Part shown: piece after piece, positions 6,295-56,331 of the stretch
Layout: each line of letters starts with the position of its first letter
Numbering within the stretch: the stretch's first letter is position 1
Origin: an uncultured bacterium
GTDB lineage: Bacteria; Patescibacteriota; Minisyncoccia; Phycocordibacterales; GWA1-40-21
Length of the DNA: 64,000 bases
NCBI GenBank assembly: GCA_903831595.1
Contig: CAIKXY010000004.1
Location: 96,552-160,551 of the forward strand
Reading direction: 5' to 3'
The notes under the pieces: generated by a model
Told to the model about the DNA's origin: nothing
The model's input: the letters and a program-made list of their open reading frames with translations, nothing else
Database searches by the model: none
Program-made: the position numbers and the translations under genes

Positions 6295-7527
6295 TTATTC
6301 ATACCTTAGAGCTTCCATTGGGCTCTTTTTCGAAGCCTGGTTCGCTGGATATATACCAAAGACTAATCCGACCAATCCTGCAACCAAAACTCCCAATACT
6401 GCTGCACTCCATGGAAATACAAAGCTCCAATCAAGTTTAATAACCGATGTTAATATGATAGATATTACATAGGACAAAGTTGCTCCCAAAATAATTCCAA
6501 TAATACCACCAGACGCCGTAAGTATAACTGCTTCAAGTAAAAATTGAGTTAAAATATCTTTTCCGGTTGCCCCAATGGCTTTTCTCAAACCGATTTCTCG
6601 TGTTCTTTCAGTCACTGATACAAGCATGATATTCATAATTCCAATTCCTCCTACCACAAGAGAAATTGCGGCAACTGCAGCTAAAAATGCTGTGAGTGCA
6701 TTCGTTATTGTTGATAAAGTTGCAGCGACATCAGCCGAAGTTGTAACAGAAAAATCATCTTTCGTTGGGTCAGTAATGTTATGTGAGTTTCGTAAGGTAA
6801 TGGTCACATCTTGAACTGTTGATTTAAGATTTGCTTCTGAATCTGCTTCAACAACAATTCTATTATAATATTTTGTTCCAGTTATATATTGTTGAGCTGT
6901 TGTGTATGGCATGAAAACCGTATCATCAAAACTTGAAGAAGCCCCTTTTTCTGGTAATACTCCAATAACTTTAAAGGTATTATTTTTAATTCTTATTTTT
7001 TGACCTATTGGATCATCACCGTCAAAAAGATGTTGTTTAACTTTATAGCCAATTACAACTACAGATGACAAACTTTGTACATCTTGGTCAGAAAAAAATG
7101 TTCCCCTGTCAGGATTTAAACTAAAAATTTCTGGGACAAGTTCACCAGAACCGAAAACAGAAACTTGATAAACATTGCTTCCATAAACCGCTTTTCCGGC
7201 TCCGACAACCATTGGCATTACATATTTTGCATGAGGAACATTTGTTTTATTTTTTATTAATTTTAAATCTTTTTCTTTAAGAGAATCGTTCATCGTCTGC
7301 GATGCCATTGATGGACCAAAGGAAACTTTTCCGGGTAATGTGATAATCGTTGTTGCTCCTAGACCTTTTACTTGCCCAAGTATAAGATTTTGTGCGCCTT
7401 GTCCAAGTGACATAACCAATATAATTGAGGTGATACCAATAACAATACCTATTATCGTCAAAGCTGAGCGCGATTTGTGCGTTGTGAGTCCCGTTACTGC
7501 AGTTTTTATGCTATATCGTAATTTCAT
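6295..7527 (-). CDS. ABC transporter permease, MacB/FtsX family
   Basis: N-terminal TM helix, large periplasmic domain, C-terminal FtsX-like 3-TM bundle; placed with an ATPase and an HlyD adaptor. Confidence 0.8.
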   Translation of the reverse strand: MKLRYSIKTAVTGLTTHKSRSALTIIGIVIGITSIILVMSLGQGAQNLILGQVKGLGATTIITLPGKVSFGPSMASQTMNDSLKEKDLKLIKNKTNVPHAKYVMPMVVGAGKAVYGSNVYQVSVFGSGELVPEIFSLNPDRGTFFSDQDVQSLSSVVVIGYKVKQHLFDGDDPIGQKIRIKNNTFKVIGVLPEKGASSSFDDTVFMPYTTAQQYITGTKYYNRIVVEADSEANLKSTVQDVTITLRNSHNITDPTKDDFSVTTSADVAATLSTITNALTAFLAAVAAISLVVGGIGIMNIMLVSVTERTREIGLRKAIGATGKDILTQFLLEAVILTASGGIIGIILGATLSYVISIILTSVIKLDWSFVFPWSAAVLGVLVAGLVGLVFGIYPANQASKKSPMEALRYE

Positions 7528-9839: not shown

Positions 9840-9888
9840 ATATAAATATTATATCAGATTTTTACTGAATTTGAAATAAAAAAATTTG

Positions 9889-9962
9889 TGGACGATACTG
9901 GATTCGAACCAGTGGCCTTACGAATGTGAATCGTATGCTCTAACCAACTGAGCTAATCGTCC
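9889..9962 (-). tRNA. tRNA-Val (anticodon CAC)
   Basis: Reverse complement GGACGAT-TA-GCTC AGTTGGTTA GAGC-A-TACGA TTCACAT TCGTA-AGGCC-ACTGG TTCGAAT CCAGT-ATCGTCC-A folds as a 74-nt cloverleaf with a perfect 7-bp acceptor stem; no encoded CCA. Confidence 0.75.
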
Positions 9963-10009
9963 TTTATTTTTTATATCTTTTATAATATACTTTTTTTGTT
10001 AAAATTGAA

Positions 10010-10082
10010 GGGCCGCTAGCTCATTTGGTAGAGCGCATCCATGGCATGGATGAGGCGACCGGTTCGATCCCGGTGCGGTCCA
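10010..10082 (+). tRNA. tRNA-Ala (anticodon GGC)
   Basis: GGGCCGC-TA-GCTC ATTTGGTA GAGC-G-CATCC ATGGCAT GGATG-AGGCG-ACCGG TTCGATC CCGGT-GCGGTCC-A; G3:U70 Ala identity pair present. Confidence 0.75.
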
Positions 10083-10244
10083 CAGGCGTATAAAATATCT
10101 GCATTTATGCTGATATTTAGCCTGTGGAAAGCGTAGCGATGTTTTGTGAGAATTAACGAACAAAACCGCGAGCTGGGGTCGCGAACACTTACATATTTTT
10201 GAAACTTTTAAGATTCAAAAATATTTAGTGATTCGTGATACACA
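10083..10244 (+). repeat. tRNA-Ala-linked conserved element, copy 1. An 8-bp stem (10080-10087 / 10120-10127) encloses an inner hairpin; a 121-nt GC-enriched structured core follows at 10124-10244.
   Basis: 97.5% identical (3 substitutions in 121 nt) to 13764-13884. Internal hairpins include GTTTTG..CAAAAC, CGCGA-GCTGGGG-TCGCG and TTTGAA..TTCAAA. Confidence 0.7.
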
Positions 10245-28925: not shown

Positions 28926-29546
28926 TTACACTTTTATTTCTTTGTCTTGCTTCTTTTTTATTAAAAAAGTATCTATTGCCCTACTAATAAAAATTCCAGC
29001 CACAATCAAAATCACAATAAATAAGACATGCTTAACTTTCCCTATGCTTTTCACAATTGGAGCGTAAGATTCATTGAAGAAATAACCAACCCAGATTAGA
29101 AAAGGTGCATAAATAAAAGTGGCTAAGGTGTTATACGTCATAAAAGTCTGATGTTTAACCTTTGTATGCCCAGAAAAAACTGGACCAACGAATCTCAAAA
29201 AAGGAATAAACCTACAAATAAAAACTGTTATGCCAATATGTTTGGTAATAAAATCCCTTCTTTTTGCAATTATTTTTAATGACAAAACTTCATGAATTAA
29301 TTTTGAAACATATTTATTGTTTTTGAGTGTAAGCGAGTAAACAATATTATCCCCAATTACAAAAGCCATTATGATAATAAAAACTGCAGGTATTGTACTT
29401 ATTAAGTTTGACTTAATCATGTAACCGGTAATAATAAGTATCATTTCCTCTGGGAAAGGAATCAGCGTACCAGAAAATAATGCGAAAAAGAAAATCGCTA
29501 AATAAGAAAAATGCTCAACCGAGACGATAAAAAGTGTGTCGTGCAT
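28926..29546 (-). CDS. DedA-family (SNARE-associated/TVP38) membrane protein
   Basis: GTLIPFPEEMILIITGY motif and topology. Confidence 0.8.
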   Translation of the reverse strand: MHDTLFIVSVEHFSYLAIFFFALFSGTLIPFPEEMILIITGYMIKSNLISTIPAVFIIIMAFVIGDNIVYSLTLKNNKYVSKLIHEVLSLKIIAKRRDFITKHIGITVFICRFIPFLRFVGPVFSGHTKVKHQTFMTYNTLATFIYAPFLIWVGYFFNESYAPIVKSIGKVKHVLFIVILIVAGIFISRAIDTFLIKKKQDKEIKV

Positions 29547-30703: not shown

Positions 30704-31201
30704 TTATTTTTTAATAATAAAATAAACAACCAGTACAAAAATTGAAATAAAGACTTGTATGGAAATACCAAGCCAAATATACTTTTTGTCTTCAATGTCG
30801 TGACCAATCTTATCGTGAAGTCTTTGAAAAAAAATAAAAGGTTGCTTTTTAAAGCTATAATATAATAATTGAAAAAAATCTGGTAACCACGCACCAATAA
30901 TTCCTATAAGTGTTATCGCGGCGCTTTTTTCATCCCTCACAAATATTAAAAAACATAATATAAGAGCTCCAATCGCTTCAAATATAATAAATATTAATTT
31001 TAGTGCCGCAGCAGAACTTTTGAATATGGATACTACCGTTCTAGTTTTTTTATCCATAAAACTATTAATGTCATAATCCTTATGTGGAATCATATCCAAA
31101 ACATAATGACTAAGGAATGCGAATACAAAACCTAATACAGGCTCATTAGGAACCAAATTTGCAACAGCCGCACCTACAATAGCATGGGGAGTTAAAATCA
31201 T
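30704..31201 (-). CDS. membrane-bound metal-dependent hydrolase-like protein (YdjM/DUF457-like)
   Basis: N-terminal HAIVGAA..SHYVLDMIPH motif; multi-TM. Confidence 0.5.
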   Translation of the reverse strand: MILTPHAIVGAAVANLVPNEPVLGFVFAFLSHYVLDMIPHKDYDINSFMDKKTRTVVSIFKSSAAALKLIFIIFEAIGALILCFLIFVRDEKSAAITLIGIIGAWLPDFFQLLYYSFKKQPFIFFQRLHDKIGHDIEDKKYIWLGISIQVFISIFVLVVYFIIKK

Positions 31202-31303: not shown

Positions 31304-32386
31304 TTACAGGGTTTTAATACAATTGTTAAATGCTGACACTTCCTTATTATAATCAGCAACCCTGGCTTTTATCTCTGATGCTAAATTATTATAAAGACCA
31401 GCTAAAGCATTTCTTTCAGAAACTTTTGTATTATATGTTTGTGTGTCAGCAGCACTAATTGTCTTTAATTCAGTATCTATATTTTTTATATTATTTAAAA
31501 TACTATCTGCAGAAAATTTATATTGAGTAATTTTGTCTTTTAAAATTACTTCGGGAGACGTACACCCGGTCATTGGCTTTCCAAAAATCTGTGTAGCTAT
31601 CCAAACAGATTGACCATTATACATTCCCTGCATTGCATAAACACCGATTTCTGTATAATTTTTATTTAAAATATTTGCTCTATGACCTGGACTATCCATC
31701 CACGCATTCACGATACCTTTTGACCCATTAAAATTTCCAAGTGCAATGTTTTCCCCAATAGTAATATATGAATAACCATTTTTTACCGCCTCTTTTGAAG
31801 CATTATCACCTGTCGGAGAATTGTGTTCAAAATATTGTTCTGCAAACATATCCTTAACTCGAATCTCAGCAATGTTTGATAAAATGCTATTATATTTCAA
31901 ATCAACCAGACTTTGGTCATTGTCTTTTCTGGCATTATTTGTAAACATAATAATTTGACTAACATTTAAATCTCCGCCCCCGACACCAACATTTGTCATA
32001 TATATATCTGGCTCAGGATTATTTATTGATGACGTCTTCGGTAATTCAGGATTTGAAATATTACTGTTCCCATTTAAATTTAGTAATGATGTTTGATTTA
32101 TTTTATTTGTTAAATCTGTGGGTACCTTGTACGAAATACAAAATCTTTTTCCAAGATTAGTTCTTAATTCCCCGTCTTTCCATTCCCCAATAGATAAAGA
32201 TAAAATATAATTTTTACAAAAATCATTCTTTATCTGTCCAACAATTTTTGTACTTACGAAATTAATAATACCAGAAACTGTGTCAGTAAAAGTGGATGCC
32301 TTTGCGACATTGCAAAATAACACCAAAAACACAAAAGAAATAGACAAAAATAGAATAACTATGCGCTTATTATAAAAAGGTATCAT
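31304..32386 (-). CDS. secreted CAP/SCP (PR-1-like) domain protein
   Basis: Signal peptide; C-terminal CAP motifs GHRANILNKNYTEIGV and WIATQIFG. Confidence 0.7.
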   Translation of the reverse strand: MIPFYNKRIVILFLSISFVFLVLFCNVAKASTFTDTVSGIINFVSTKIVGQIKNDFCKNYILSLSIGEWKDGELRTNLGKRFCISYKVPTDLTNKINQTSLLNLNGNSNISNPELPKTSSINNPEPDIYMTNVGVGGGDLNVSQIIMFTNNARKDNDQSLVDLKYNSILSNIAEIRVKDMFAEQYFEHNSPTGDNASKEAVKNGYSYITIGENIALGNFNGSKGIVNAWMDSPGHRANILNKNYTEIGVYAMQGMYNGQSVWIATQIFGKPMTGCTSPEVILKDKITQYKFSADSILNNIKNIDTELKTISAADTQTYNTKVSERNALAGLYNNLASEIKARVADYNKEVSAFNNCIKTL

Positions 32387-32455
32387 ATATAATATTATAC
32401 AATATAAACAAAAAAGACACTATAAAAAATTAATAATGGGTGTTATAATCAATAC

Positions 32456-32848
32456 ATGAAATTTTTTACAACCTATTTTGGTTATTTAAAATGGCATTAC
32501 GGTAAAGCACTTGCTACGACTTTTGCATTTTGGAAAAACATTTTGTATTTTTTATTTAATTATTTTTCACTTAAAAATTTAATTGGTAATTTTTTTTCTC
32601 CTTGGAAAAGACTTGCTGATAATTACCCAAAACAATTTAGTATTAAGGTGTATTTTGGTATATTTATTGTTAATACAATAATGAGAGTTGTCGGTATATT
32701 AATGAGAACAATAATTATATTTGTTGGGCTATCTGTGTGCTTGATATATATTGTATTGCTTCCCGTTTCACTACTTTTATGGTTAATGCTTCCTATAATA
32801 ACGATTGGTTTAATCGTATATGGTTTAATATTAATATTTTTTTCTTAG
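32456..32848 (+). CDS. small membrane protein (130 aa), translationally coupled to the downstream AAA+ gene
   Basis: Three predicted TM helices; the stop lies 4 nt before the next start. Confidence 0.45.
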   Translation: MKFFTTYFGYLKWHYGKALATTFAFWKNILYFLFNYFSLKNLIGNFFSPWKRLADNYPKQFSIKVYFGIFIVNTIMRVVGILMRTIIIFVGLSVCLIYIVLLPVSLLLWLMLPIITIGLIVYGLILIFFS

Positions 32849-32851
32849 ACA

Positions 32852-35329
32852 ATGAATATAAGAGAATACTTAAAACAAAGCTCGATATACAATGTTTTGG
32901 CAACAGAATCTTTGGTGTCAGAAAATTTTAGAAATAAATTATCGAAGATATCAAAAGTCATATTATCTATATTGGTATTAATTTTGATCTTGTTTTATTT
33001 TACTCAGCATTCAATAAAATTTACAAATTTTAAGAATTTTATTGTCATTCATGACTTAATAAATAGAACGGTTGGTCTTATTATGTTTAATGTTGGTATA
33101 TATATTTATTCAAGTATAGCAAGTTTTTATCTTGCATCAGAATATTATTTTGAAAAGATTACTCAAAATAAGTATAGCAAAGATGAACTATACACTTTTT
33201 CCGCTGGTAGGATTTTATATACTGGTAGAAAAACTGATATATTGCATGGTTTTTTTGCTTCAAAAATTGGAAGACTTATATTAATAAGATTGGGCATAAA
33301 TACAAAAGATATCAATTTTTTTTATAATTCAGAGAATATTACTACAGATGAAAATGTACCAGTTGTAGATGGACAGATATTAAAATTGAAGGATATTGCA
33401 AAATATCTATATAATACAAAACCAAATTTTGTTAAATTTTTAAATGATAGAGGCATTAGTGATAAAGAGCTTTTTGGTACGATAGAATGGGTTATCTATG
33501 AAATTGAAACGAAAGAATACCAATCACAGTGGTGGAGGCCGGAAATATTATCTACAAAAAAAAGGATTGCTAGTGACTGGTCCTTTGGAAAAACATTTCT
33601 TCTAGAAAGGTATGGCAGAAACTTAATGAATGACTCCGAAGTAAATTCTGAAGCAATTTCATTTGAAAGCAGGGTAACTGAAATAAGCCAAATTGAAAAT
33701 GCCCTTTCAAAATCAACTGCTGCAAATGCAATGCTCGTTGGTGAGCCTGGGCAAGAAAAAATGCAAGTTATTTGGAGTTTGTGTAGAAATATAAAAAATA
33801 ATACCATTTCTCCAGCACTACAAAAGAAAAAACCGATCTTGCTAATGGCAAATATATTAATATCAGAGTGTGGAAGTAAAGATCTTTTAGAGAATCAAGT
33901 GTCAAAAATCCTAAACGAAGTTATTCGCGCTGGAAATGTAATACTAGTTATAGAAAATTTTACTGAATTATTTAAACATGCAGAAAACATTGGTAGTAAC
34001 TTTTTGGATTTGATTAATCCTTTTCTAAGTAGCTCAAGTATTCAAGTGGTTGCAATTGTAAATTCAATTGATTTTCATCAATATTTTGAGAATAATAAGT
34101 TATTGTCAAATAACATTGAGACAATTTTAGTTAGACCATTAACAGCGGATGAAGTAATAAAAATTGTTTACGCAGCAGCTCTTGAATCAGAAAAAAATTA
34201 TAAAATATATTTTACTTTTCAGGCTGTTCAGGAATTTGCAAATAGCGCAAGTTATTATTTTCCAAACGGCGTAACCTCCGATATTGCAATAAATCTATTA
34301 AATGAGATATCACCTTGGTCAAAGAGAAATGGGTATAAAATAATTGGTAAAGATGAAGTGCTTGAATATATTGAGCAAAAAACAAACATTCCAACTAGTG
34401 GAAAAATTTCAGCAAAAGAAAAAGAAAAACTACTTGATTTAGAAAATCAGATAGGAAAACGAGTCGTTGGCCAAAAAGATGCAATTGTTGCTATCAGTAA
34501 TTCTTTGAGACGTGCGAGAACTGGAGTAAGAAATCCAAATAAACCAATTGGCTCTTTTCTATTTCTTGGTCCTACTGGTGTGGGTAAAACTGAGACAGCA
34601 AAAGCACTTGCATACGTGTTTTTTGGAAGCGAGGAAAACATGATGCGCCTTGATATGTCAGAATATCAAACTGACGATTCTATGGAAAGGCTTATTGGCT
34701 CATTTAGTACGGGTAAACCAGGTGTATTTTCTAGTATGATTAGAGAGAAGCAGTACGGCGTCATTCTTCTAGACGAATTTGAAAAAACTCACAAGGATGT
34801 ATTAAACCTGTTCTTACAAATTCTTGATGAAGGTTTTTTCTCTGATACCTCTGGTCAAAAAGTAAATACGAGAAATATTATATTTATTGCAACTTCAAAT
34901 GCTGGTGCTAATACTATTTTTGAAATGGTTAATGCTGGGAAAAATCCAAAAGAAGCTCAGGATGAAATTATTGATGAAATAGTTAAAAATGGATTATTTA
35001 AACCTGAATTGATAAATCGTTTTGATGCAACAATTATTTATAAACCGCTTGAAAGTGATGACTTAAAACAAATTGCAAAAATAATGCTAACTAAAGTTGC
35101 AAGCAGAATGGTTGAAAAAGGTTTAACTCTAAATATTTCAGATGAACTTATTGACTATATCGTTAAGAATGGTTCAAATAAAGCCTTTGGTGCAAGACCA
35201 ATGAACAGATTTATTCAAGAAACAATAGAAGGAACAATTGCAAACCTTATTTTGAAAGGTGAGGCTATTTCAGGAAAAACAATATCATTTGTAGTAAATA
35301 ATAATAATTTAGTGACAGAAATCTCATAA
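32852..35329 (+). CDS. membrane-anchored ClpA/ClpB-like AAA+ ATPase with a degenerate D1 and an intact D2
   Basis: Two N-terminal TM helices. D1 Walker A degenerate (GEPGQEKMQV) and Walker B IEN in place of DE. D2 Walker A GPTGVGKTE, Walker B ILLDEFEKTH, sensor-2 GARPMNR. Confidence 0.8.
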   Translation: MNIREYLKQSSIYNVLATESLVSENFRNKLSKISKVILSILVLILILFYFTQHSIKFTNFKNFIVIHDLINRTVGLIMFNVGIYIYSSIASFYLASEYYFEKITQNKYSKDELYTFSAGRILYTGRKTDILHGFFASKIGRLILIRLGINTKDINFFYNSENITTDENVPVVDGQILKLKDIAKYLYNTKPNFVKFLNDRGISDKELFGTIEWVIYEIETKEYQSQWWRPEILSTKKRIASDWSFGKTFLLERYGRNLMNDSEVNSEAISFESRVTEISQIENALSKSTAANAMLVGEPGQEKMQVIWSLCRNIKNNTISPALQKKKPILLMANILISECGSKDLLENQVSKILNEVIRAGNVILVIENFTELFKHAENIGSNFLDLINPFLSSSSIQVVAIVNSIDFHQYFENNKLLSNNIETILVRPLTADEVIKIVYAAALESEKNYKIYFTFQAVQEFANSASYYFPNGVTSDIAINLLNEISPWSKRNGYKIIGKDEVLEYIEQKTNIPTSGKISAKEKEKLLDLENQIGKRVVGQKDAIVAISNSLRRARTGVRNPNKPIGSFLFLGPTGVGKTETAKALAYVFFGSEENMMRLDMSEYQTDDSMERLIGSFSTGKPGVFSSMIREKQYGVILLDEFEKTHKDVLNLFLQILDEGFFSDTSGQKVNTRNIIFIATSNAGANTIFEMVNAGKNPKEAQDEIIDEIVKNGLFKPELINRFDATIIYKPLESDDLKQIAKIMLTKVASRMVEKGLTLNISDELIDYIVKNGSNKAFGARPMNRFIQETIEGTIANLILKGEAISGKTISFVVNNNNLVTEIS

Positions 35330-35349
35330 ATATAGCCATAATAAATAGC

Positions 35350-35377
35350 TTGACAAAAAAAACAATTGGAGTACAAT
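35350..35377 (+). promoter_or_regulatory. consensus sigma70-type promoter TTGACA-N16-TACAAT, followed by the inverted repeat GTTATCA-N5-TGATAAC (35391-35409)
   Basis: Exact hexamer matches; no convincing CDS downstream before the terminator at 35589. Confidence 0.55.
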
Positions 35378-35588
35378 TGTGATGTAAATAGTTATCACCA
35401 GTTGATAACATTTACTGGGGTTCTTGGTTTTATATCTACCCCAAGTCTGTGCGATTATCCAGATACTCTTTTGTATCCAGACTATAATATCGCTCCCGTT
35501 CTTTTTTTGTTCTTTCAACAGTTAATAGGACTGTTAGTTATAATTTTTACTTTTGTAATTATTTAACTTATCCACCCTATTCAGCTTC

Positions 35589-35622
35589 CACTTCCGGAGG
35601 CTGTTTTTTTATTTTTAATAAC
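35589..35622 (+). terminator. intrinsic terminator (CAGCTTCC-ACTTCC-GGAGGCTG plus T7ATTTT)
   Basis: 8-bp stem with one G-U pair, followed by a long T-tract. Confidence 0.7.
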
Positions 35623-35651
35623 TTGACAAAGTTAAAATTATTTGCTACAAT
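35623..35651 (+). promoter_or_regulatory. consensus sigma70-type promoter TTGACA-N17-TACAAT; RBS AGGAGGT at 35664-35670
   Basis: Exact -35/-10 hexamers with 17-nt spacing, upstream of the ATG at 35678. Confidence 0.65.
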
Positions 35652-35677
35652 CGCTAACGGGAAAGGAGGTGATAAAA

Positions 35678-35881
35678 ATGGAAAACCTTTCCAAGGAGGA
35701 AATGGGAGAAATTGCCCTGAAATATGTTGCCATGAAACTTTATAAAGATGGCTTCACTATTTCAAAAAGTTCTTTGCGTGAAATAAATAATCACGCAAAG
35801 GAACTTGGCATCCCAGCTGAGAAACTGAAAGAGTTTCTCAGAGTTATGGTCCAGGAAACAATGGACCAGGTGTTCAAATAA
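35678..35881 (+). CDS. hypothetical small protein (67 aa), probably highly expressed
   Basis: Strong promoter plus a perfect Shine-Dalgarno. The track ORF starts at TTG 35642, but the ATG at 35678 with its RBS is preferred. Confidence 0.5.
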   Translation: MENLSKEEMGEIALKYVAMKLYKDGFTISKSSLREINNHAKELGIPAEKLKEFLRVMVQETMDQVFK

Positions 35882-35992
35882 TGAACACCAGCAACAAAAG
35901 CGTAGAGTTGAACCACATCTGTGGTTCGTAAAGGGGTAATTGCATCTCGCCAGGTTTGGCCAGATGTCAGAACAAGAACCCAGCTCCCGCTT

Positions 35993-36027
35993 AAGGCGCG
36001 GCGATAATCAGCGGCGCCTTTTTATTT
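35993..36027 (+). terminator. intrinsic terminator (AAGGCGC-N14-GCGCCTT plus TTTTTATTT) ending a GC-rich structured 3' region
   Basis: GC stem plus T-tract, 112 nt beyond the stop of the 67-aa gene. Confidence 0.6.
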
Positions 36028-36030
36028 GAC

Positions 36031-48279: not shown

Positions 48280-51200
48280 TTATTTATAAAAAAAGAAAAC
48301 TGGAAAAATTGATTTGATCATTGAAAATAAAATATTTAAAAAATTTGGCACTTTATTTACTCCAACTGACGCTGTCATAATCAAATTATTTTTTGGACTA
48401 GTACTGGCATAACTGTATATGACAGGTGATACAATTCTCGCCTTTAAGCTCCGCGCAGCAAGCCCCCCATTTTTTACCTTATTATTTTTAGTTATGCTTT
48501 CCTCTATTTCTATCTTTTTTATATCTGAAAGGGTGGAGGTTGCAAAAATGGAAAGTGTTGACTTGCCAATAATTGTATCTAATATTGGAACAGTTGTGGT
48601 TGTATTTACAACTGATGGAATGTCGGGGGCAGCAATACTTGCTGGTAGACTTACACGACGTCTTGTATTTTTACTAATAACATTTATTATTCTTGAACTT
48701 GTAGCAATATTTCCGGAAGAATCCGTAACAATATAATCGAAATAGTATGTCCCAGGTTTTGTAATATCTAGATTTGTAGAAGTAGATATTAATGAAGTTA
48801 TTTCCCCGTTAACATTGTCGATTGCTTTAGCACCTAAATCAGCATAATCATCACCAACTATAATAGTAATTTGATTATCACCTAATAGTTTAAGAATTGG
48901 TGCCGTTGAATCCTGGCTATCGCTTGGCTCAATATAAAAATCTGTTATCCCATCTCCATTTGAATCTATCAACAAATTTGTCGAGGTAGAACTTGTTGCA
49001 TCAAACATTTCTGATGAAACCTTTATCTCTCCTGTAGTATTTTTTGTAGATGAAATATTTGTGTATCGTCTTCTTTTTAAAACAATACCGTCACTTGAAA
49101 CAACTTTTGTTTCAAGTGAGAAAACAGCGTCTTCTGTCCCCTTCAATTTGACTGTGTAATCTTCCCCTTCATTTAAAAAAACATTTGTACTATCACCAAC
49201 ATTTATATAACGACTTCCAGGTATATTTTCTTCCGCAACTTCTAAATCTGAATCCGGAAGTGGGTTTATCACCATACCTGTATATTCATTTTTTGCACTA
49301 TATACACCTAAACGTACTGGTGAATGTAGTGATAATTCCAATATTTTGTCTGTTGAGGTTGGTTTTTCTTTAGTGATGTATTCTGGCAAAATATCGTTTA
49401 AATTTAATACTATATTATTTACAAAATTTATCGTTGAAGTAGCTTCAAAAATATTTGTATGTGCCAAACTAATACCCGAATCTTTTTTTATTTTTTTTAA
49501 ATCTAAATAATATTTTTCAGCAGAATCAATTGTTGTGGCGCTTGGTACTACAACTGTACTATCTCCATCTTCCGTAACAATTGGATTCCTGTCCATAGTC
49601 TTTTTTGGTTTAAAACAAAAAATAAAACCAATTTCACAAACGTCATTTGCAAAATACTCTATTCCACTTACGGTTTTTATTCCCCAACCAGCAAGTTGGG
49701 TGACTTTTATATTTGAGGGCGGTAACCAATTATCAAGAACTGTGTGATTATCTTCTGCAATTTGAAGTAAATTTGATTTCAAAACATTCGGAGTAATAGT
49801 ATCACTATTCGCTGGCTCTTTCCTACCATCTACACCCAAAAGAAAATCTTTAAGCTCCATATAATTATCTATGATATTATTGTATTTTTCTCTTAAATTA
49901 TTAATATCATCAACAGATTCATCAAATTTAATAACTGGTGACGCAACTTTTGTAAAATATTCATTCTGTGGTAATAAATTGTAAGCCCCCATCATATTTT
50001 CACCCAAAGTTCTTGCTGTAGGTTTATTTAAAAAATAATACAAATCCTTAAGCGCAATTATTTCTTGCCCATCTCCGTGAAGCATAGCAGAAATGGCGCT
50101 TGGGGTACCAAGTTGTGGCGCGGCAACCATTACTAAATTATCAATTAAATTATCTTTGCCACGTTTTTTTAATTCGTTTATTAATACCTTTGCTAAAAGT
50201 CCACCATTACTGTGAGTAACAATTGCGACTTTTCCTGTCTGAGAGGAACTAGACATTTTTATAACTTCATCGATAAAATTTAGTCTTGAACCATCTTCAA
50301 GTAAAACTCCATCAGTAATTATTTTATTTAAATCATATCTCCAATCGTATGGTATAGCTTCCCAATCATTAATTTTTTTATCAGCAACCAAATCATCAAG
50401 CGAATTGGCAAAACTTTTGTAAACATTTTCATCCCAAATTCCAAGACCAATATTTGATCGTTTTATTATGTCTCTCGTATAAACGTTTTGGTTTATACTG
50501 TTCCCCGAATCATCCAAATATAATTTTTGTACATCAGCATTGCGATTTGGCTCCCAAAGTTGATTTTCGAAAAGTAATCCTTTTGTGTACAATCTACTTC
50601 CTTCAAGACCTGGAATAAAAATCACGTTTGAACAACATTTTGGTTTATCATCCGGCACAGATATCAGCCATGGCTGATATTCAACATTCGAGGAAACTTT
50701 ATTTGCAGTGCCCGAAGCATTTGTTTCAGTGTTGAATGGACCACTGGCATCTCCCCACCAATTATTAGTGGCTTTTATTTTTGGCATTTCGTGCCAATCA
50801 GAAAAAATGTCTAAGTATGAAGACAAATTTTTAATTCCAAATAATGTATTATTTTTTATCGTACTATGATTAATTTCTACATTTGCTCCGCGGCTATTTA
50901 TACCATTATTGTTCAAAGAGATTTCACTATCCGATATATTGACAACTGGATAATCATAAACCTGTATTCCATCTTTAGCAAAATTTTTAATTATTGTTTT
51001 TATAATATTTACTTCAACATTTTTATAAATTATTAAACCAGAAGCATTTCCATAACTTATAATTGAATTGTAGATATTTAATGTGGTTGTCGCGTAACTA
51101 TTGTTATCTGCACCAAATATTTCAATTGCTGCTTGATATTTATCGTTAATAGTATTTTTTAATAATGAATCAGAAAAGTTTAACCGGCTTCCATAATATA

Positions 51201-52098
51201 CTTCAAAAACTGTATTCGCAGAAATATTGTTGATACTTGAACTAGCAATATTTGCTGAACTATTAAAATACACCTGAAAAGCAGACCACCAGCCATTTGG
51301 CATATTTTCTATATTGGTATTGGTTATGTCCACAAAGCTATCTTCGGCAACTTCAGCTACATAATCCCCATTAACATTTAATATATTTGTATTGGTGATT
51401 TTTGCATGGCTACTATTAAATATCCCAAATAAACTATCAACATTATTAATAAATGAATCACTTATATCTATTGAGCTATTGTCGTATAGAACAAAATTAT
51501 GACTCCAACCACGGCTTTCGCCTATATTTTTTATATTAGAATGATTTATGTCAACCCTGCTATCTATAATGCCCGCAACACTTTGACAATTAACGATATC
51601 CGAATTAATTATGCTTCCTGTGGAATGATGGTAAATAAAAGCAATCTCTGCAAAAGAAACAACGACATTGTCTATTTCTGCAATTCCGCCATCATCAACT
51701 TCAATACCAGACCAGTCAGAATCTGACGGAAAAATTAGCCCTTCATCTGAACCAACATCTCCACCAACAGAGTCATCGTCAATCGATGTAAAATATACTT
51801 TTTCAGCATCAGAAATACCATTAGCAAAAAGTTTTCCAGAAATTATTATTGACTGACCATAATCAAATTTAACTACAACGCCAGGATTGATGTTTAAAGT
51901 TACACCGGCAGCAACTGTTAGATCTGAAGTGCTGTCTGGAGAAGCATAAATAACGTATGGGCTTCCCTCCGCAGTCCAAGTTGTATCTTCTGAAATCACA
52001 CCACCATAAATATCAGTCTCCGCATGAACAAAGCTAAAACAAAAGCAAAATAATAAAATAAATATTGCACACAGGTAATATTCACTAGTTTTTTTCAT
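48280..52098 (-). CDS. giant secreted/surface protein (1272 aa): N-terminal parallel beta-helix repeats, central alpha/beta-hydrolase lipase-like domain, Ig-like domain, C-terminal TM anchor
   Basis: Signal peptide; Asn/Ser-rich ~22-aa beta-helix repeats; GxSxG as THSNGG within a PGAP1/LCAT-like region; DNVNGEITS..DYIVTDSSGN Ig-like segment; C-terminal hydrophobic tail. Confidence 0.8.
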   Translation of the reverse strand: MKKTSEYYLCAIFILLFCFCFSFVHAETDIYGGVISEDTTWTAEGSPYVIYASPDSTSDLTVAAGVTLNINPGVVVKFDYGQSIIISGKLFANGISDAEKVYFTSIDDDSVGGDVGSDEGLIFPSDSDWSGIEVDDGGIAEIDNVVVSFAEIAFIYHHSTGSIINSDIVNCQSVAGIIDSRVDINHSNIKNIGESRGWSHNFVLYDNSSIDISDSFINNVDSLFGIFNSSHAKITNTNILNVNGDYVAEVAEDSFVDITNTNIENMPNGWWSAFQVYFNSSANIASSSINNISANTVFEVYYGSRLNFSDSLLKNTINDKYQAAIEIFGADNNSYATTTLNIYNSIISYGNASGLIIYKNVEVNIIKTIIKNFAKDGIQVYDYPVVNISDSEISLNNNGINSRGANVEINHSTIKNNTLFGIKNLSSYLDIFSDWHEMPKIKATNNWWGDASGPFNTETNASGTANKVSSNVEYQPWLISVPDDKPKCCSNVIFIPGLEGSRLYTKGLLFENQLWEPNRNADVQKLYLDDSGNSINQNVYTRDIIKRSNIGLGIWDENVYKSFANSLDDLVADKKINDWEAIPYDWRYDLNKIITDGVLLEDGSRLNFIDEVIKMSSSSQTGKVAIVTHSNGGLLAKVLINELKKRGKDNLIDNLVMVAAPQLGTPSAISAMLHGDGQEIIALKDLYYFLNKPTARTLGENMMGAYNLLPQNEYFTKVASPVIKFDESVDDINNLREKYNNIIDNYMELKDFLLGVDGRKEPANSDTITPNVLKSNLLQIAEDNHTVLDNWLPPSNIKVTQLAGWGIKTVSGIEYFANDVCEIGFIFCFKPKKTMDRNPIVTEDGDSTVVVPSATTIDSAEKYYLDLKKIKKDSGISLAHTNIFEATSTINFVNNIVLNLNDILPEYITKEKPTSTDKILELSLHSPVRLGVYSAKNEYTGMVINPLPDSDLEVAEENIPGSRYINVGDSTNVFLNEGEDYTVKLKGTEDAVFSLETKVVSSDGIVLKRRRYTNISSTKNTTGEIKVSSEMFDATSSTSTNLLIDSNGDGITDFYIEPSDSQDSTAPILKLLGDNQITIIVGDDYADLGAKAIDNVNGEITSLISTSTNLDITKPGTYYFDYIVTDSSGNIATSSRIINVISKNTRRRVSLPASIAAPDIPSVVNTTTTVPILDTIIGKSTLSIFATSTLSDIKKIEIEESITKNNKVKNGGLAARSLKARIVSPVIYSYASTSPKNNLIMTASVGVNKVPNFLNILFSMIKSIFPVFFFYK

Positions 52099-53667: not shown

Positions 53668-56331
53668 ATGGCAAAAAACAAAAAATACGTTTATGCATTT
53701 GAGGAAGGAAACAAGGATATGAAAGAAATCCTTGGAGGAAAAGGTGCGAACTTAGCAGAAATGAAAAATTTGGGAATCAATGTTCCCCCAGGTTTTACTA
53801 TCAGTACTGAAGCCTGTGCACTTTATTATGAAGTCGGCAAAAAAATAAATGCTGAAGTAAAAAAACAGACAGATATTAAACTTGCACAGCTTGAAAAGAA
53901 AATGGGAAAGAAGCTTGGAGATGCAAATGATCCCCTTCTAGTCTCCGTTCGCTCTGGTGCTTTCGCATCAATGCCTGGAATGATGGATACCATTTTGAAT
54001 CTTGGTTTAAATGACAAATCAGTTGTAGGACTTGCAAAAATCACAAACAATCCTCGCTTCGCGTGGGATTCATATAGAAGACTTATTCAGATGTTTGGAA
54101 ACGTTGTTATGGAAATGGGACATGGAGATTTTGAACACATTTTGGAATCTGTAAAAGATACAAAAGGTGCAAAATATGACACAGACCTTACAGCCGACGA
54201 TTTGAAAGAAATTGTTACAAAATACAAAGCAAAAATAAAAGCTGTCAAAGGAGTAGAATTTCCACAAGACCCTATCAAACAGATGTATTTGGCTATTAAC
54301 GCCGTTTTTAATTCTTGGAACAACTATCGCGCTATAAGATACAGAGAAATAAATAGCATCAAAGGACTTATCGGAACTGCTGTAAATATTCAAGCAATGG
54401 TCTTCGGAAATCTTGGAGATGATTCTGGAACAGGTGTATGCTTTACAAGAAATCCTTCAACAGGAGAAGCAAAATTCTACGGAGAATATTTGATGAACGC
54501 ACAAGGAGAAGATGTAGTCGCTGGTATCAGAACTCCCCTTTCTGTAGCAACATTGGCAAAAGCAAATCCAAAAATTTATAAAGAACTTGTCAGTATTTGT
54601 AATAAAGTTGAAAAACATTACAAAGATATGCAAGATATGGAATTTACAATTGAAAGAGGTGTGCTTTATATTCTTCAAGCAAGAAATGGTAAAAGAACTG
54701 CAGCCGCTTCTGTAAAAATCGCCGTTGACTTAGTAAAAGAAAAACTTATTTCACTCGAAACAGCACTTTTGAGAATTGACCCAAACCAATTAAACCAACT
54801 CCTACACAAACAGCTAGACCCAATCGCCGTTTCAAAAGCAAGAGTCATTGCACAAGGACTTCCAGCTTCTCCAGGAGCAGCTGTCGGAGAAGTAGTATTT
54901 ACTGCAGGTGAAGCGTTTGCAAAAGCGAAATCAGGTCTTGATGTAATTCTTGTTAGAACAGAAACATCACCAGAAGATATTGACGGTATGCACTCATCAA
55001 AAGGAATTTTGACAGCAAGAGGTGGTATGACAAGCCATGCTGCTGTGGTTGCACGAGGTATGGGAACATGCTGTGTGGCAGGTTGCGCAGATATTTCAAT
55101 CGATGAAAAAGCAAAGACACTTACAATAAAAAGCCAAGGGATTGTGATTAAAGAAGGAGAATTTATTTCTCTTGATGGTTCAACAGGAAAAGTTTATGAA
55201 GGAAAACTCGGAACGCAAGATGCATCATTGCTTGGAAACTTTGGAACTCTGATGAATTGGTCAGACAAATTTAGAAAAATTGGCGTGCGAACAAATGCAG
55301 ACACACCTCACGATGCACAAGTTGCTAGAAAATTTGGTGCAGAAGGTATTGGACTTTGCAGAACTGAACACATGTTTTTTGAAGGTGCTCGTATAAAAGC
55401 GGTTCGCGAAATGATACTTGCAGGCGATCTTGAAGCTAGAAAAAAAGCATTGGCAAAACTTTATCCATATCAGAAAGGAGATTTTGCTGGATTATTTGAA
55501 GCCATGGACGGTCTTGCAGTTACTATCAGACTATTAGATGCACCACTTCATGAATTCTTACCAAAAGAAAAGAAAGATATTGAGGAACTTTCAAAAGAAA
55601 TGAGAGTTGATGTAAAAACACTTGAAGCAAAGATTGAAGACCTACATGAATTCAATCCTATGCTTGGACACCGAGGTTGCAGACTTGCTATCACCTATCC
55701 TGAAATTTACGATATGCAAGCAATGGCAATCATTGATGCTGCAATTGAAGTAAAGAAAAACAAAAAAGCAAAGTCAGTCAAGCCAGAAATAATGATTCCT
55801 ATTGTTGCCACAACAAAAGAATTCTCAATCTTAAAAGATAGAATTGTAAAAATTGTTGAAGCAAAAATAAAAGAATCAAAAGTGAAAATTGAATATAAGA
55901 TCGGAACAATGATTGAAGTTCCACGTGCGGCTTTGATTGCAGATAAGATTGTAAATGCTGGTGCAGAGTTCTTCTCATTTGGAACAAACGATCTTACACA
56001 AATGGGAGCTGGACTTTCAAGAGATGATGCTGGTAAATTCTTAAAAGAATATGTTGCTCAAGATATTTTCGCTTATGATCCATTTGAAGTTTTGGACCAA
56101 GAAGGTATCGGCCAACTTATTAAAATCGCTATACAAAAAGGTAGGAGTATAAAGAAAGATTTGAAAGTTGGTATTTGTGGAGAACATGGTGGAGAGCCAA
56201 AAACAGTTGAATTCTGTCACAGGGAAGGATTAAATTATGTTTCTTGCTCACCATTTAGAGTACCAATCGCAAGACTCGCAGGAGCTCAAGCGGTAGTGAG
56301 AGAATTATTGAACAAAAAAGGAAAAAAATAA
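53668..56331 (+). CDS. ppdK: pyruvate, phosphate dikinase
   Basis: N-terminal EILGGKGANLAEM, catalytic His region GGMTSHAAVVARG, C-terminal PEP/pyruvate-binding domain; 887 aa. Confidence 0.95.
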   Translation: MAKNKKYVYAFEEGNKDMKEILGGKGANLAEMKNLGINVPPGFTISTEACALYYEVGKKINAEVKKQTDIKLAQLEKKMGKKLGDANDPLLVSVRSGAFASMPGMMDTILNLGLNDKSVVGLAKITNNPRFAWDSYRRLIQMFGNVVMEMGHGDFEHILESVKDTKGAKYDTDLTADDLKEIVTKYKAKIKAVKGVEFPQDPIKQMYLAINAVFNSWNNYRAIRYREINSIKGLIGTAVNIQAMVFGNLGDDSGTGVCFTRNPSTGEAKFYGEYLMNAQGEDVVAGIRTPLSVATLAKANPKIYKELVSICNKVEKHYKDMQDMEFTIERGVLYILQARNGKRTAAASVKIAVDLVKEKLISLETALLRIDPNQLNQLLHKQLDPIAVSKARVIAQGLPASPGAAVGEVVFTAGEAFAKAKSGLDVILVRTETSPEDIDGMHSSKGILTARGGMTSHAAVVARGMGTCCVAGCADISIDEKAKTLTIKSQGIVIKEGEFISLDGSTGKVYEGKLGTQDASLLGNFGTLMNWSDKFRKIGVRTNADTPHDAQVARKFGAEGIGLCRTEHMFFEGARIKAVREMILAGDLEARKKALAKLYPYQKGDFAGLFEAMDGLAVTIRLLDAPLHEFLPKEKKDIEELSKEMRVDVKTLEAKIEDLHEFNPMLGHRGCRLAITYPEIYDMQAMAIIDAAIEVKKNKKAKSVKPEIMIPIVATTKEFSILKDRIVKIVEAKIKESKVKIEYKIGTMIEVPRAALIADKIVNAGAEFFSFGTNDLTQMGAGLSRDDAGKFLKEYVAQDIFAYDPFEVLDQEGIGQLIKIAIQKGRSIKKDLKVGICGEHGGEPKTVEFCHREGLNYVSCSPFRVPIARLAGAQAVVRELLNKKGKK

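Follow-up and report, generated by a model that had tools for sequence, protein, structure and literature searches.

What does a Clp-like ATPase do when its first ring has apparently lost its catalytic motifs and its N-terminus seems to sit in a membrane? The question is raised by two adjacent genes in a 64,000-nt stretch of contig CAIKXY010000004.1 from an uncultured patescibacterium (positions 96,552 to 160,551 of the forward strand; hereafter, "the window"), a low-GC (~32%) housekeeping region. The original prediction described the larger product (825 aa) as a membrane-anchored, ClpA/B-like AAA+ protein with an inactivated first ring (D1) and coupled it to a small membrane protein of 130 aa, referred to here as the partner, encoded immediately upstream. 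Both open reading frames (ORFs) were found where they had been placed (32456–32848 and 32852–35329), and the named homologs of the ATPase come from Paceibacterota, Parcubacteria, and other Patescibacteria. The window protein belongs to a clade of the Candidate Phyla Radiation (CPR) whose members share a transmembrane (TM) anchor, a Trp-rich linker, the absence of an M-domain and of a ClpP-docking loop, and a partner that is either encoded upstream or fused.

A search of 5.8 billion proteins yielded 77 full-length close orthologs (P0001–P0078, less one truncated) at 45–100% identity, nearly all of them 808–830 aa long, and a second tier of relatives at 30–39% identity. Two tandem AAA+ modules with predicted Hsp100 D1 and D2 folds assign the window protein to class I (two-ring) of the Clp/Hsp100 family. 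Pfam matches are confined to the second ring, D2, namely AAA_2 at residues 564–726 (E = 2e-43) and ClpB_D2-small (PF10431) at residues 733–811 (E = 8e-22), and the NCBIfam models for ClpB, ClpA, ClpV, ClpG, and ClpK all score far under their cut-offs. In a phmmer search of the PDB, residues 274–505 align with E. coli ClpB D1 (residues 183–413, 46 bits), and residues 501–821 with its D2 (residues 534–854, 260 bits). An AlphaFold2 model built with 31 orthologs as input has a mean predicted local distance difference test (pLDDT) score of 84, and a Foldseek search with this model retrieves ClpC and ClpB with E-values down to 8e-44 and TM-scores of up to 0.80 on the target.

The alignment to E. coli ClpB bears out the claim that the Walker motifs of D1 are degenerate and that D1 is not intact. 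GEPGVGKT pairs with GEPGQEKM and ILFIDELH with ILVIENFT, while the pore loop KYRG has become GSKD (AKYRGEFE pairs with CGSKDLLE) and the arginine fingers ERRF have become SNNI (LERRFQ pairs with LSNNIE). Across the 77 close orthologs, Walker A reads GEPGQEK[MI] or something close to it, and the pore-loop Tyr and arginine fingers are absent from all of them. Since these motif states are conserved, the loss of D1 is not a chance event. The Walker B of the window protein is degenerate as described, but its "IEN" is a peculiarity: VIEN occurs in this protein only, and 66 of the 77 orthologs have [VI]IDN instead. D1 is not decaying either and is still maintained by purifying selection; its pairwise identity (0.53–0.59) equals that of the N-domain and D2-small, with 0.74 in the D2 core. 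At the site of the lost pore loop (residues 338–347; 33863–33892), first-tier orthologs carry a new motif, S-x-C-K-D-K-x-x-L-E, with its Cys and Lys conserved in most of them and a Gly at the first Lys in the window protein. Conservation of this motif implies that the loop is selected for something besides the canonical Tyr function.

D2 is the single catalytically competent ring, as had been predicted: its GPTGVGKT, ILLDEFEK, TSN, PELINRFD, and GARPMNR motifs are invariant in 31 orthologs, as opposed to the lost motifs of D1. The description of D2 as fully canonical is accurate for every ATPase motif but not for its pore. Pore loop 1 shows a 4-residue gap relative to GAPPGYVGYEEGG, reading GS----FSTGKPG, with GS-F-S/T-x-G-K-P-G as the family form. 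Position 618 in this loop is F or Y in 65 of the 77 close orthologs; the other 12 have Q, N, S, R, I, V, or a gap there. The loop is four to six residues shorter in the second-tier and Saccharibacteria relatives that were aligned, and most of these are missing the aromatic residue. The canonical pore-loop tyrosines (D1 KYRG and D2 GYVG) are absent from both rings of the window protein.

Two further elements of canonical Hsp100s are lacking in all anchored proteins when compared with a reference set of 20 canonical ClpB, ClpC, and ClpE sequences. The window protein has 61 residues between reference positions 470 and 530, versus 181–187 in the ClpB references, and ClpB residues 413–534, which constitute the M-domain, are without a counterpart in the phmmer alignment. 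A short M-domain of the ClpC type is not present either (~60 residues versus 118–121 in the ClpC references), and no UVR domain was matched in Pfam. With no M-domain, coupling to DnaK in the manner of ClpB is not expected. The second element is the ClpP-docking loop, seen in the ClpC references as LGF or IGF within an insertion of 8–16 residues after D2 sensor 1. The window protein has no insertion between D2 sensor 1 and the arginine finger and no [ILVM]G[FL] after residue 600; with the ClpP-binding loop absent, a role as a ClpP-coupled protease is excluded.

Membrane tethering of the ATPase is likewise supported. In a Kyte-Doolittle scan that took in 120 homologs, N-terminal hydrophobic helices were present in almost all family members. 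In the window protein, TM1 (residues 34–52) peaks at 3.3 and TM2 (residues 73–95) at only 1.6, the latter being higher in relatives, and AlphaFold places helices at residues 24–51 and 69–102, in agreement with the two N-terminal helices originally proposed. A wrong start or a signal peptide misread as an anchor was considered and ruled out, since residues 1–33 are conserved (mean pairwise identity of 0.50 among 61 orthologs) and a stop codon lies 3 nt upstream of the ATG. This N-terminal tail is net positive, with 5.6 K+R versus 3.1 D+E on average in 73 orthologs, and its charge fits an N-in hairpin that leaves the ATPase in the cytoplasm.

The helices had been described as standing in place of the Clp N-domain, and this does not hold, as residues ~110–224 are modeled (pLDDT ~90) as a Clp/Hsp104 N-domain. 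When residues 104–270 were modeled separately (pLDDT 81), the top ~27 Foldseek matches in the PDB were all Clp/Hsp104 N-domains, with probabilities of up to 0.99 (ClpC N-domain) and TM-scores of 0.39–0.52, although E-values were only 0.03–1. Alignment to the Clp_N profile with hhalign covered both repeats (E = 3e-4, probability 40%), and Pfam Clp_N had no match in the window ATPase or in second-tier members. A double-repeat Clp_N domain is therefore predicted at the level of fold only. Given that the fold search finds Clp/Hsp104 N-domains, the hairpin would be an addition ahead of a divergent N-domain and not a replacement for it. The Trp-rich linker that follows is the most conserved segment outside D2, with a pairwise identity of 0.63 and nine invariant columns. 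Its motif occurs in 102 of 111 anchored proteins versus none of the 20 canonical references, and it is kept in fusions of the partner to the ATPase.

When genome contigs were searched with a profile of the family alignment, generic D2 patterns (GPTGVGKTE) led mostly to canonical ClpB and ClpC loci; the search yielded 10 distant anchored loci, plus references and a negative control. In a neighbor-joining tree of 545 D1+D2 columns, all anchored proteins fall into one clade (bootstrap 100/100) with members from Paceibacteria, other Parcubacteria, Woykebacteria, Saccharibacteria, and unclassified Patescibacteria. Its origin lies on the ClpC/ClpE side of the tree and not with ClpB. Neighbor joining on long branches can mislead, but the clade is backed independently of the tree by the shared hairpin, linker, loss of the M-domain, and partner gene. 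Basal members (P0116, P0117, P0118, P0098, and P0114) keep more of the ancestral features. For instance, P0116 and P0117 retain GEPG[VT]GKT in D1 and GAPPGY[EA]G in D2, and the survival of a GEPGVGKT-type Walker A and of GYxG in basal members suggests stepwise loss from a threading ancestor. A full-text literature search found no description of a membrane-anchored Hsp100 in the CPR. Four metagenome-assembled genomes labeled "uncultured Gammaproteobacteria" (L008, L009, L019, and L027) also carry the anchored ATPase. The partner was seen in L009, L019, and L027, the upstream sequence of L008 being too short, and the protein composition of L019 is unlike that of the AT-rich window genome. Either the four genomes are mislabeled or the system is not confined strictly to the CPR.

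The partner has no relative in Pfam, NCBIfam, PADLOC, or, by profile search, the PDB, and its 243 homologs are every one unnamed or "hypothetical". A profile search of 1.84 billion cluster representatives recovered 1,356 partner clusters at 50% identity (773 of them at E ≤ 1e-10), nearly all 120–140 aa long. Conservation was computed from 139 representatives at most 50% identical to one another, and residues W13, H14, Y15, F32, F37, S38, L42, N73, R77, G80, R84, W109, and P113 are at least 90% conserved. While a protein with three TM helices had been proposed, the family profile instead indicates a positively charged segment (residues 1–84) followed by 46 uncharged residues. The latter are read as a tight two-helix membrane hairpin that would have W109 and P113 at its turn.

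Coupling of the ATPase to this small membrane protein, as originally claimed, proved to be the rule at every anchored locus examined. In a survey of 85 Clp loci, counting anchored loci with enough upstream sequence, the partner lies directly upstream of the ATPase, often overlapping its start, at 16 of 16 anchored loci versus none of 66 canonical Clp loci. Two further basal loci (L088 and L089) bring the count to 18 of 18. L019 seemed to be without a partner, yet it encodes a divergent one (38% identity to the L087 partner, E = 6e-18), and L090 and L091, which also seemed to be without one, encode fused ATPases. Partner homologs are found directly upstream of orthologs at 71%, 57%, and 48% identity, as well as of second-tier and basal members. 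The pair is kept in at least 10 different genomic contexts, and since the surrounding genes differ among lineages, its adjacency is not mere synteny.

Partner and ATPase are fused in at least seven proteins (P0325, P0345, P0085, P0091, P0093, P0115, and P0119). In P0325 (824 aa) and P0345 (768 aa), the partner domain comes first and joins the ATPase at about residue 190–200 of the window protein; both lack the N-terminal tail, the hairpin, and most of the N-domain of the ATPase, and both keep the Trp-rich linker, D1, and D2. Independent assemblies (NCBI, JGI, and Logan) contain at least six full-length copies of the P0345 form. These independent copies, together with a length far from the ~955 aa that read-through of a frameshift would give, show the P0345 fusion to be real. 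The other five carry the partner domain at residues 2–119 (E = 1e-22 to 3e-32), and at their loci, L090 and L091, the partner is not encoded separately. Since the partner hairpin leads straight into the cytoplasmic N-domain in P0093, P0115, and P0119, the C-terminus of the partner is most likely cytoplasmic; in P0345, too, the hairpin leads straight into the cytoplasmic ATPase. Recurrent fusion also speaks for the partner as a stable subunit in equimolar amount, as opposed to a client. Moreover, P0325 and P0345 have the partner where the hairpin and most of the N-domain would be, and the fusions thus suggest that the ATPase hairpin, and in some lineages the N-domain, serve mainly to dock the partner. 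In P0325, the partner hairpin and the ATPase are separated by an extra, moderately hydrophobic segment (residues 137–158). Were this segment to span the membrane, the ATPase would end up on the wrong side, at odds with an N-in/C-in model; a re-entrant helix, a peripheral helix, or a remnant are candidates for it.

The interpretation favored here, held with belief and doubt in about equal measure, is that of a two-subunit membrane Hsp100, driven by D2 and independent of ClpP and DnaK, that pulls or remodels membrane-embedded clients from the cytoplasmic side. An N-in/C-in helical hairpin would hold the ATPase in the membrane, D1 would be a catalytically dead, probably nucleotide-free, passive structural scaffold with D2 as the sole motor, and the partner would act as a built-in membrane adaptor and stable equimolar subunit. 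Because the anchor precedes the N-domain, the N-domain/D1 face of the presumed hexamer, which is the usual substrate entrance of Hsp100s, would point toward the membrane beneath a ring of hairpins from both subunits. ATP hydrolysis by D2 would then extract or disassemble membrane clients without degrading them, a model drawn from the geometry common to FtsH, Msp1/ATAD1, and Bcs1.

The gene neighborhoods point to divisome proteins or polyprenyl-phosphate-dependent enzymes of envelope synthesis as putative clients. MraZ, RsmH, FtsL, and FtsI lie downstream of the pair in L001 and L086, RsmH and FtsL upstream in L087 and L019, and WecA/MraY-family transferases downstream in L009 and L087. MurT is divergent from the pair in L010 and MurT/GatD in Southlakia, in L002 the partner gene is overlapped by one for an LCP glycopolymer transferase, in L003 the pair is followed downstream by genes for a phosphoglycosyl transferase of the WbaP type and a GT1, and PAP2-family genes occur near the pair in L084 and L001.

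Published transposon-sequencing (Tn-seq) tables for the saccharibacterium Southlakia epibionticum give an initial indication of phenotype. SEML1_0700 (860 aa, listed as "AAA family ATPase") has AAA_2 at residues 544–706, D2-small at residues 713–792, and no Clp_N, and SEML1_0701 is a hypothetical protein of 127 aa encoded upstream of and overlapping it (PMC10633639, Table S1). Their architecture and order match those of the Saccharibacteria loci L002, L006, L007, and L010. Both genes were called non-essential (NE), NE, and growth defect (GD) at passages 0, 1, and 2, respectively, as normalized reads fell from 4124 to 2517 and 1638 for 0700, and from 258 to 157 and 51 for 0701 (PMC10633639). 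Southlakia further encodes ClpC in canonical form (SEML1_0512, carrying Clp_N and UVR) as well as ClpP (SEML1_0493), and neither is essential (PMC10633639). The main text of that study is silent on 0700 and 0701, which are listed in its tables alone (Wang et al., Cell 2023; PMC10633639).

Several points weigh against extraction of membrane clients. Canonical threading needs a pore-loop aromatic, and D1 has none. The D2 loop is shortened, and 12 of the 77 close orthologs lack its aromatic, as do most of the second-tier and Saccharibacteria members that were aligned. The recurrence of division and polyprenyl-phosphate-dependent envelope genes beside the pair, being a raw tally, is a lead only, and L006 (with TatC), L007, and L089 have no envelope genes by the pair. 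SEML1_0700/0701 are likely the orthologous pair, as judged by published domain coordinates and gene order, and the Tn-seq phenotype that they share is a mild one without specificity. Because of the pore loops, a Torsin-like, non-threading switch is the main rival: the D2 cycle would change the conformation or oligomeric state of the partner hairpins, for example to gate, scaffold, or organize a membrane assembly, and would thread no polypeptide through the ring. Loss of GYVG, a shortened D2 loop with no conserved aromatic in the clade, and a D1 without its Tyr all favor such a switch, as do the permanence of the partner, a subunit that can even be fused and is no client, and the near absence of exposed extracytoplasmic loops in either protein. 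On balance it seems somewhat unlikely, since basal members keep GYxG, 65 of the 77 close orthologs have F or Y in the loop, and the N-domain, usually a substrate or adaptor module, is retained; the other D2 features of translocating Hsp100s are also invariant, including an arginine finger in cis, which Torsins lack. Of the earlier functional labels, "unfoldase" in the sense of canonical threading is uncertain, with no canonical pore-loop Tyr in either ring and a shortened D2 loop. Action on secreted substrates is unlikely, given that both proteins expose almost nothing outside the membrane. A bolder version of the extraction model has six ATPase and six partner hairpins forming a membrane ring of ~24 helices over an Hsp100 channel with rebuilt pore loops, a CPR-specific device that would extract, insert, or move something other than an ordinary unfolded polypeptide, such as membrane proteins of the divisome or of envelope synthesis, or polyprenyl-linked intermediates. 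This seems a long shot, though if true it would make the pair an AAA+ membrane remodeler of a mechanistic class not seen in model bacteria.

Three other explanations fare worse. The ATPase could be a cytosolic unfoldase or disaggregase merely parked at the membrane, replacing ClpB in genomes without it and acting on soluble misfolded or aggregated proteins. Southlakia has only two ClpB_D2-small proteins (ClpC and this type) and hence no ClpB, the N-domain is retained, and the ClpP loop is absent, as in ClpB. However, disaggregation by ClpB/Hsp104 needs an M-domain for Hsp70 coupling and two active rings. With no M-domain, a dead D1, and non-canonical pore loops, a disaggregase in the sense of ClpB, as first suggested, is improbable, and the obligate conserved membrane partner would go unexplained. 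A translocation motor on a channel formed by the hairpins, moving polypeptides across the membrane of host-dependent bacteria, is quite improbable. In its favor, the axial channel of a hexamer with equimolar partner would be covered by a ring of ~24 TM helices, and cultivated CPR bacteria rely on exchange with a host for their way of life (PMC10633639, PMC11665869). Against it stand hairpins that are short, carry no charge, and show no obvious polar residues that could line a pore, along with degenerate pore loops and a mild Tn-seq phenotype; nor do genes for secretion or competence recur beside the pair at the loci examined. Scarcely credible, finally, is a ClpP-dependent membrane protease, an FtsH-like substitute, or an anti-phage component such as DolB of Dodola. 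The [ILVM]G[FL] loop is absent, the segment from sensor 1 to the arginine finger has the length seen in ClpB, and Pfam finds no protease domain. The PADLOC models DolB and PDC-M37B do match the D2 core. The Dodola candidate was nonetheless rejected, as the DolB model covers generic D2 only (residues 514–684) and the partner and neighboring genes have no PADLOC match; the gene also lies in a housekeeping context conserved by descent.

The features of the gene pair and its flanks are listed in Table 1.

Table 1. Features of the partner–ATPase gene pair and adjacent DNA, in window coordinates (residue numbers refer to the respective protein).
Feature	Position	Strand	Residues or motif	Basis or remark
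Partner gene, small membrane protein	32456..32848	+	130 aa	ORF list
Partner, net-positive, aromatic-rich segment, probably cytoplasmic	32456..32707	+	1–84	Family alignment
Partner, uncharged 46-residue hydrophobic stretch	32708..32845	+	85–130	W109 and P113 at center
Membrane-anchored Hsp100/Clp ATPase gene	32852..35329	+	825 aa	ORF list, Pfam, NCBIfam, phmmer, AlphaFold, Foldseek
Conserved N-terminal tail, net positive, predicted cytoplasmic	32852..32950	+	1–33	Identity and charge
Predicted TM hairpin	32951..33136	+	TM1 34–52, short outer loop 53–72, TM2 73–95	Kyte-Doolittle scan, AlphaFold, charge
Predicted divergent Clp N-domain	33179..33523	+	110–224	AlphaFold (pLDDT ~90), Foldseek, hhalign
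Clade-specific Trp-rich linker	33524..33607	+	225–252, QWWRPE...DWSFGKT	Conservation
D1 pseudo-ATPase module	33665..34351	+	272–500	Alignment to ClpB D1, motif tables
Degenerate D1 Walker A	33740..33763	+	GEPGQEKM (canonical GEPGVGKT)	
Degenerate D1 Walker B	33938..33958	+	VILVIEN (canonical ILFIDE)	Catalytic Glu replaced by Asn
D2 large ATPase domain	34439..35041	+	530–730	Pfam AAA_2, 82 invariant columns
D2 Walker A	34568..34591	+	GPTGVGKT	Invariant
Shortened D2 pore loop 1	34697..34723	+	GSFSTGKPG (canonical GAPPGYVGYEEGG)	HMMER and MAFFT alignments
D2 Walker B	34760..34777	+	VILLDE	D641 and E642 invariant
D2 arginine finger	35018..35020	+	R723 in PELINRFD	Invariant, aligns with ClpB PEFINRID
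ClpB_D2-small domain	35042..35287	+	731–812, sensor-2 GARPMNR at 35189–35209	Pfam PF10431
Candidate extended -10-like element	32441..32449	+	TGTTATAAT	6 nt 5' of partner ATG, read by eye
Candidate terminator-like hairpin	35582..35603	+		~250 nt 3' of ATPase stop, 1 site vs 1.6 expected in shuffles

The partner stop codon (TAG, 32846–32848) is followed by "aca" and then by the ATG of the ATPase, and this tight spacing suggests that both are translated together. The element TGTTATAAT, which was not detected by a two-hexamer promoter scan, may give rise to a leaderless transcript of a two-gene operon. The hairpin downstream may mark the end of that operon, weakly so at one site versus 1.6 expected in shuffled sequence. 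Within the 700-nt gap 3' of the ATPase (35330–36030) are two strong sigma-70-like promoter matches, at 35350 and 35623 (11/12 each); an ORF of 67 aa was called in this gap on the identical contig L081 (locus positions 6723–6926), and Rfam and tRNA scans found no tRNA or Rfam family there.

Divergent from the pair in the window are genes for a secreted protein of the CAP/YkwD family (360 aa, 31304–32386, minus strand) and a multi-pass membrane protein (165 aa, 30704–31201, minus strand), an arrangement kept at orthologous loci down to 48% ATPase identity (L081–L084). The CAP protein has a weak, domain-level match to the model for "divisome-associated lipoprotein DalA" (32.7 bits, cut-off 200). 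The 165-aa protein has a sub-threshold Pfam match to YdjM (E = 0.022), and BLASTP gave nothing significant; in L091, a true YdjM gene lies directly upstream of the fused ATPase. A DedA/VTT membrane protein (206 aa, 28926–29546, minus strand) is encoded at a distance of three genes from the pair and is retained in L081–L083. Some DedA proteins are implicated in the recycling of undecaprenyl phosphate, and through this activity the neighbor would fit the envelope theme of other lineages. Farther away, the window contains a cluster of tRNA genes (9888–13723) for tRNA-Val(CAC) and three tRNA-Ala (GGC, CGC, and UGC), as well as genes for pyruvate phosphate dikinase (53668–56331, plus strand) and a nearby phosphoketolase (XFP; 57559–59943, minus strand), which are central-carbon enzymes in an otherwise reduced genome. 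A protein of 1,272 aa (48280–52098, minus strand) combines an LCAT-type lipase/acyltransferase with a bacterial surface Ig-like domain and may be a surface lipid-scavenging enzyme, which, if true, would be notable for a lineage believed to lack lipid synthesis of its own.

The pair represents a CPR-wide, two-subunit variant of Hsp100 in the Patescibacteria, which account for a very large and poorly understood share of bacterial diversity, and current pipeline labels such as "ClpC" or "AAA family ATPase" mask how the clade differs. The likely orthologs SEML1_0700 and SEML1_0701, with their matched fitness defect in the genetically tractable Southlakia epibionticum, make the system testable, and the natural fusions are ready single-chain constructs for biochemistry and cryo-electron microscopy. 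If the link to envelope and divisome is true, the pair would also provide a way into how ultrasmall bacteria build and divide their envelope.

Among known systems, ClpC (of Bacillus and Staphylococcus, or mycobacterial ClpC1) shares the two-ring fold, the Clp N-domain fold, and D2-small with the window protein. The latter adds a TM hairpin and the Trp-rich linker, its D1 is dead and its D2 loop shortened, it has ~60 residues where ClpC has an M-domain region of ~120, and it lacks LGF. Its companion is an obligate membrane partner, whereas ClpC employs soluble adaptors such as MecA. The distance from ClpA is evident from an NCBIfam score of 331 against a cut-off of 993. ClpB/Hsp104 is likewise independent of ClpP, has the same loop length between sensor 1 and the arginine finger, and gives the best D2 sequence match (260 bits). 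In contrast to ClpB, the window protein is integrated in the membrane, D1 is inactive, and both the M-domain (~60 versus ~182 residues) and GYVG are absent; the score for the ClpB model TIGR03346 is 377 against a cut-off of 1232.

FtsH, Msp1/ATAD1, and Bcs1 have the same geometry, with an N-terminal anchor and a ring entrance that faces the bilayer from the cytoplasmic or matrix side, as described for Msp1 (PMC7018516). None of them is closely related to the window protein; they differ in having a single classical AAA ring, strong aromatic pore loops, and no obligate small hairpin partner, and FtsH has an M41 protease domain, while the window protein has no match to Peptidase_M41. Torsin is a Clp-D2-like AAA+ protein with no canonical pore-loop aromatic that works only with a membrane-spanning partner, LAP1 or LULL1 (PMC5425593). 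Torsins differ in being single-ring, lumenal proteins that receive an arginine finger from a partner with an AAA-like fold, as opposed to R723 in cis here. The partner described here, at 130 aa, is mostly a putative membrane hairpin with no AAA-like fold, unlike LAP1 and LULL1.

In NSF (D2) and PEX1/PEX6 (D1), which belong to different AAA+ clades, one ring is degenerate and kept as a scaffold for structure or assembly, and the work is done by the other. No Hsp100 unfoldase is known to have a D1 that is fully degenerate. Plant relatives of the SMAX1/D53 type, one of which was a weak match in the phmmer search of the PDB, are degenerate Hsp100s that serve as soluble nuclear repressors. Hsp100 motors at membrane channels are exemplified by HSP101 with EXP2 in PTEX and by Hsp93 at the chloroplast TIC, to which the translocation-motor alternative can be likened. 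Hsp100/Clp proteins are otherwise soluble, two-motor unfoldases, and the clade departs from this norm in being membrane-integral, with a dead first ring, rebuilt pore loops, and an obligate, repeatedly fused small subunit.

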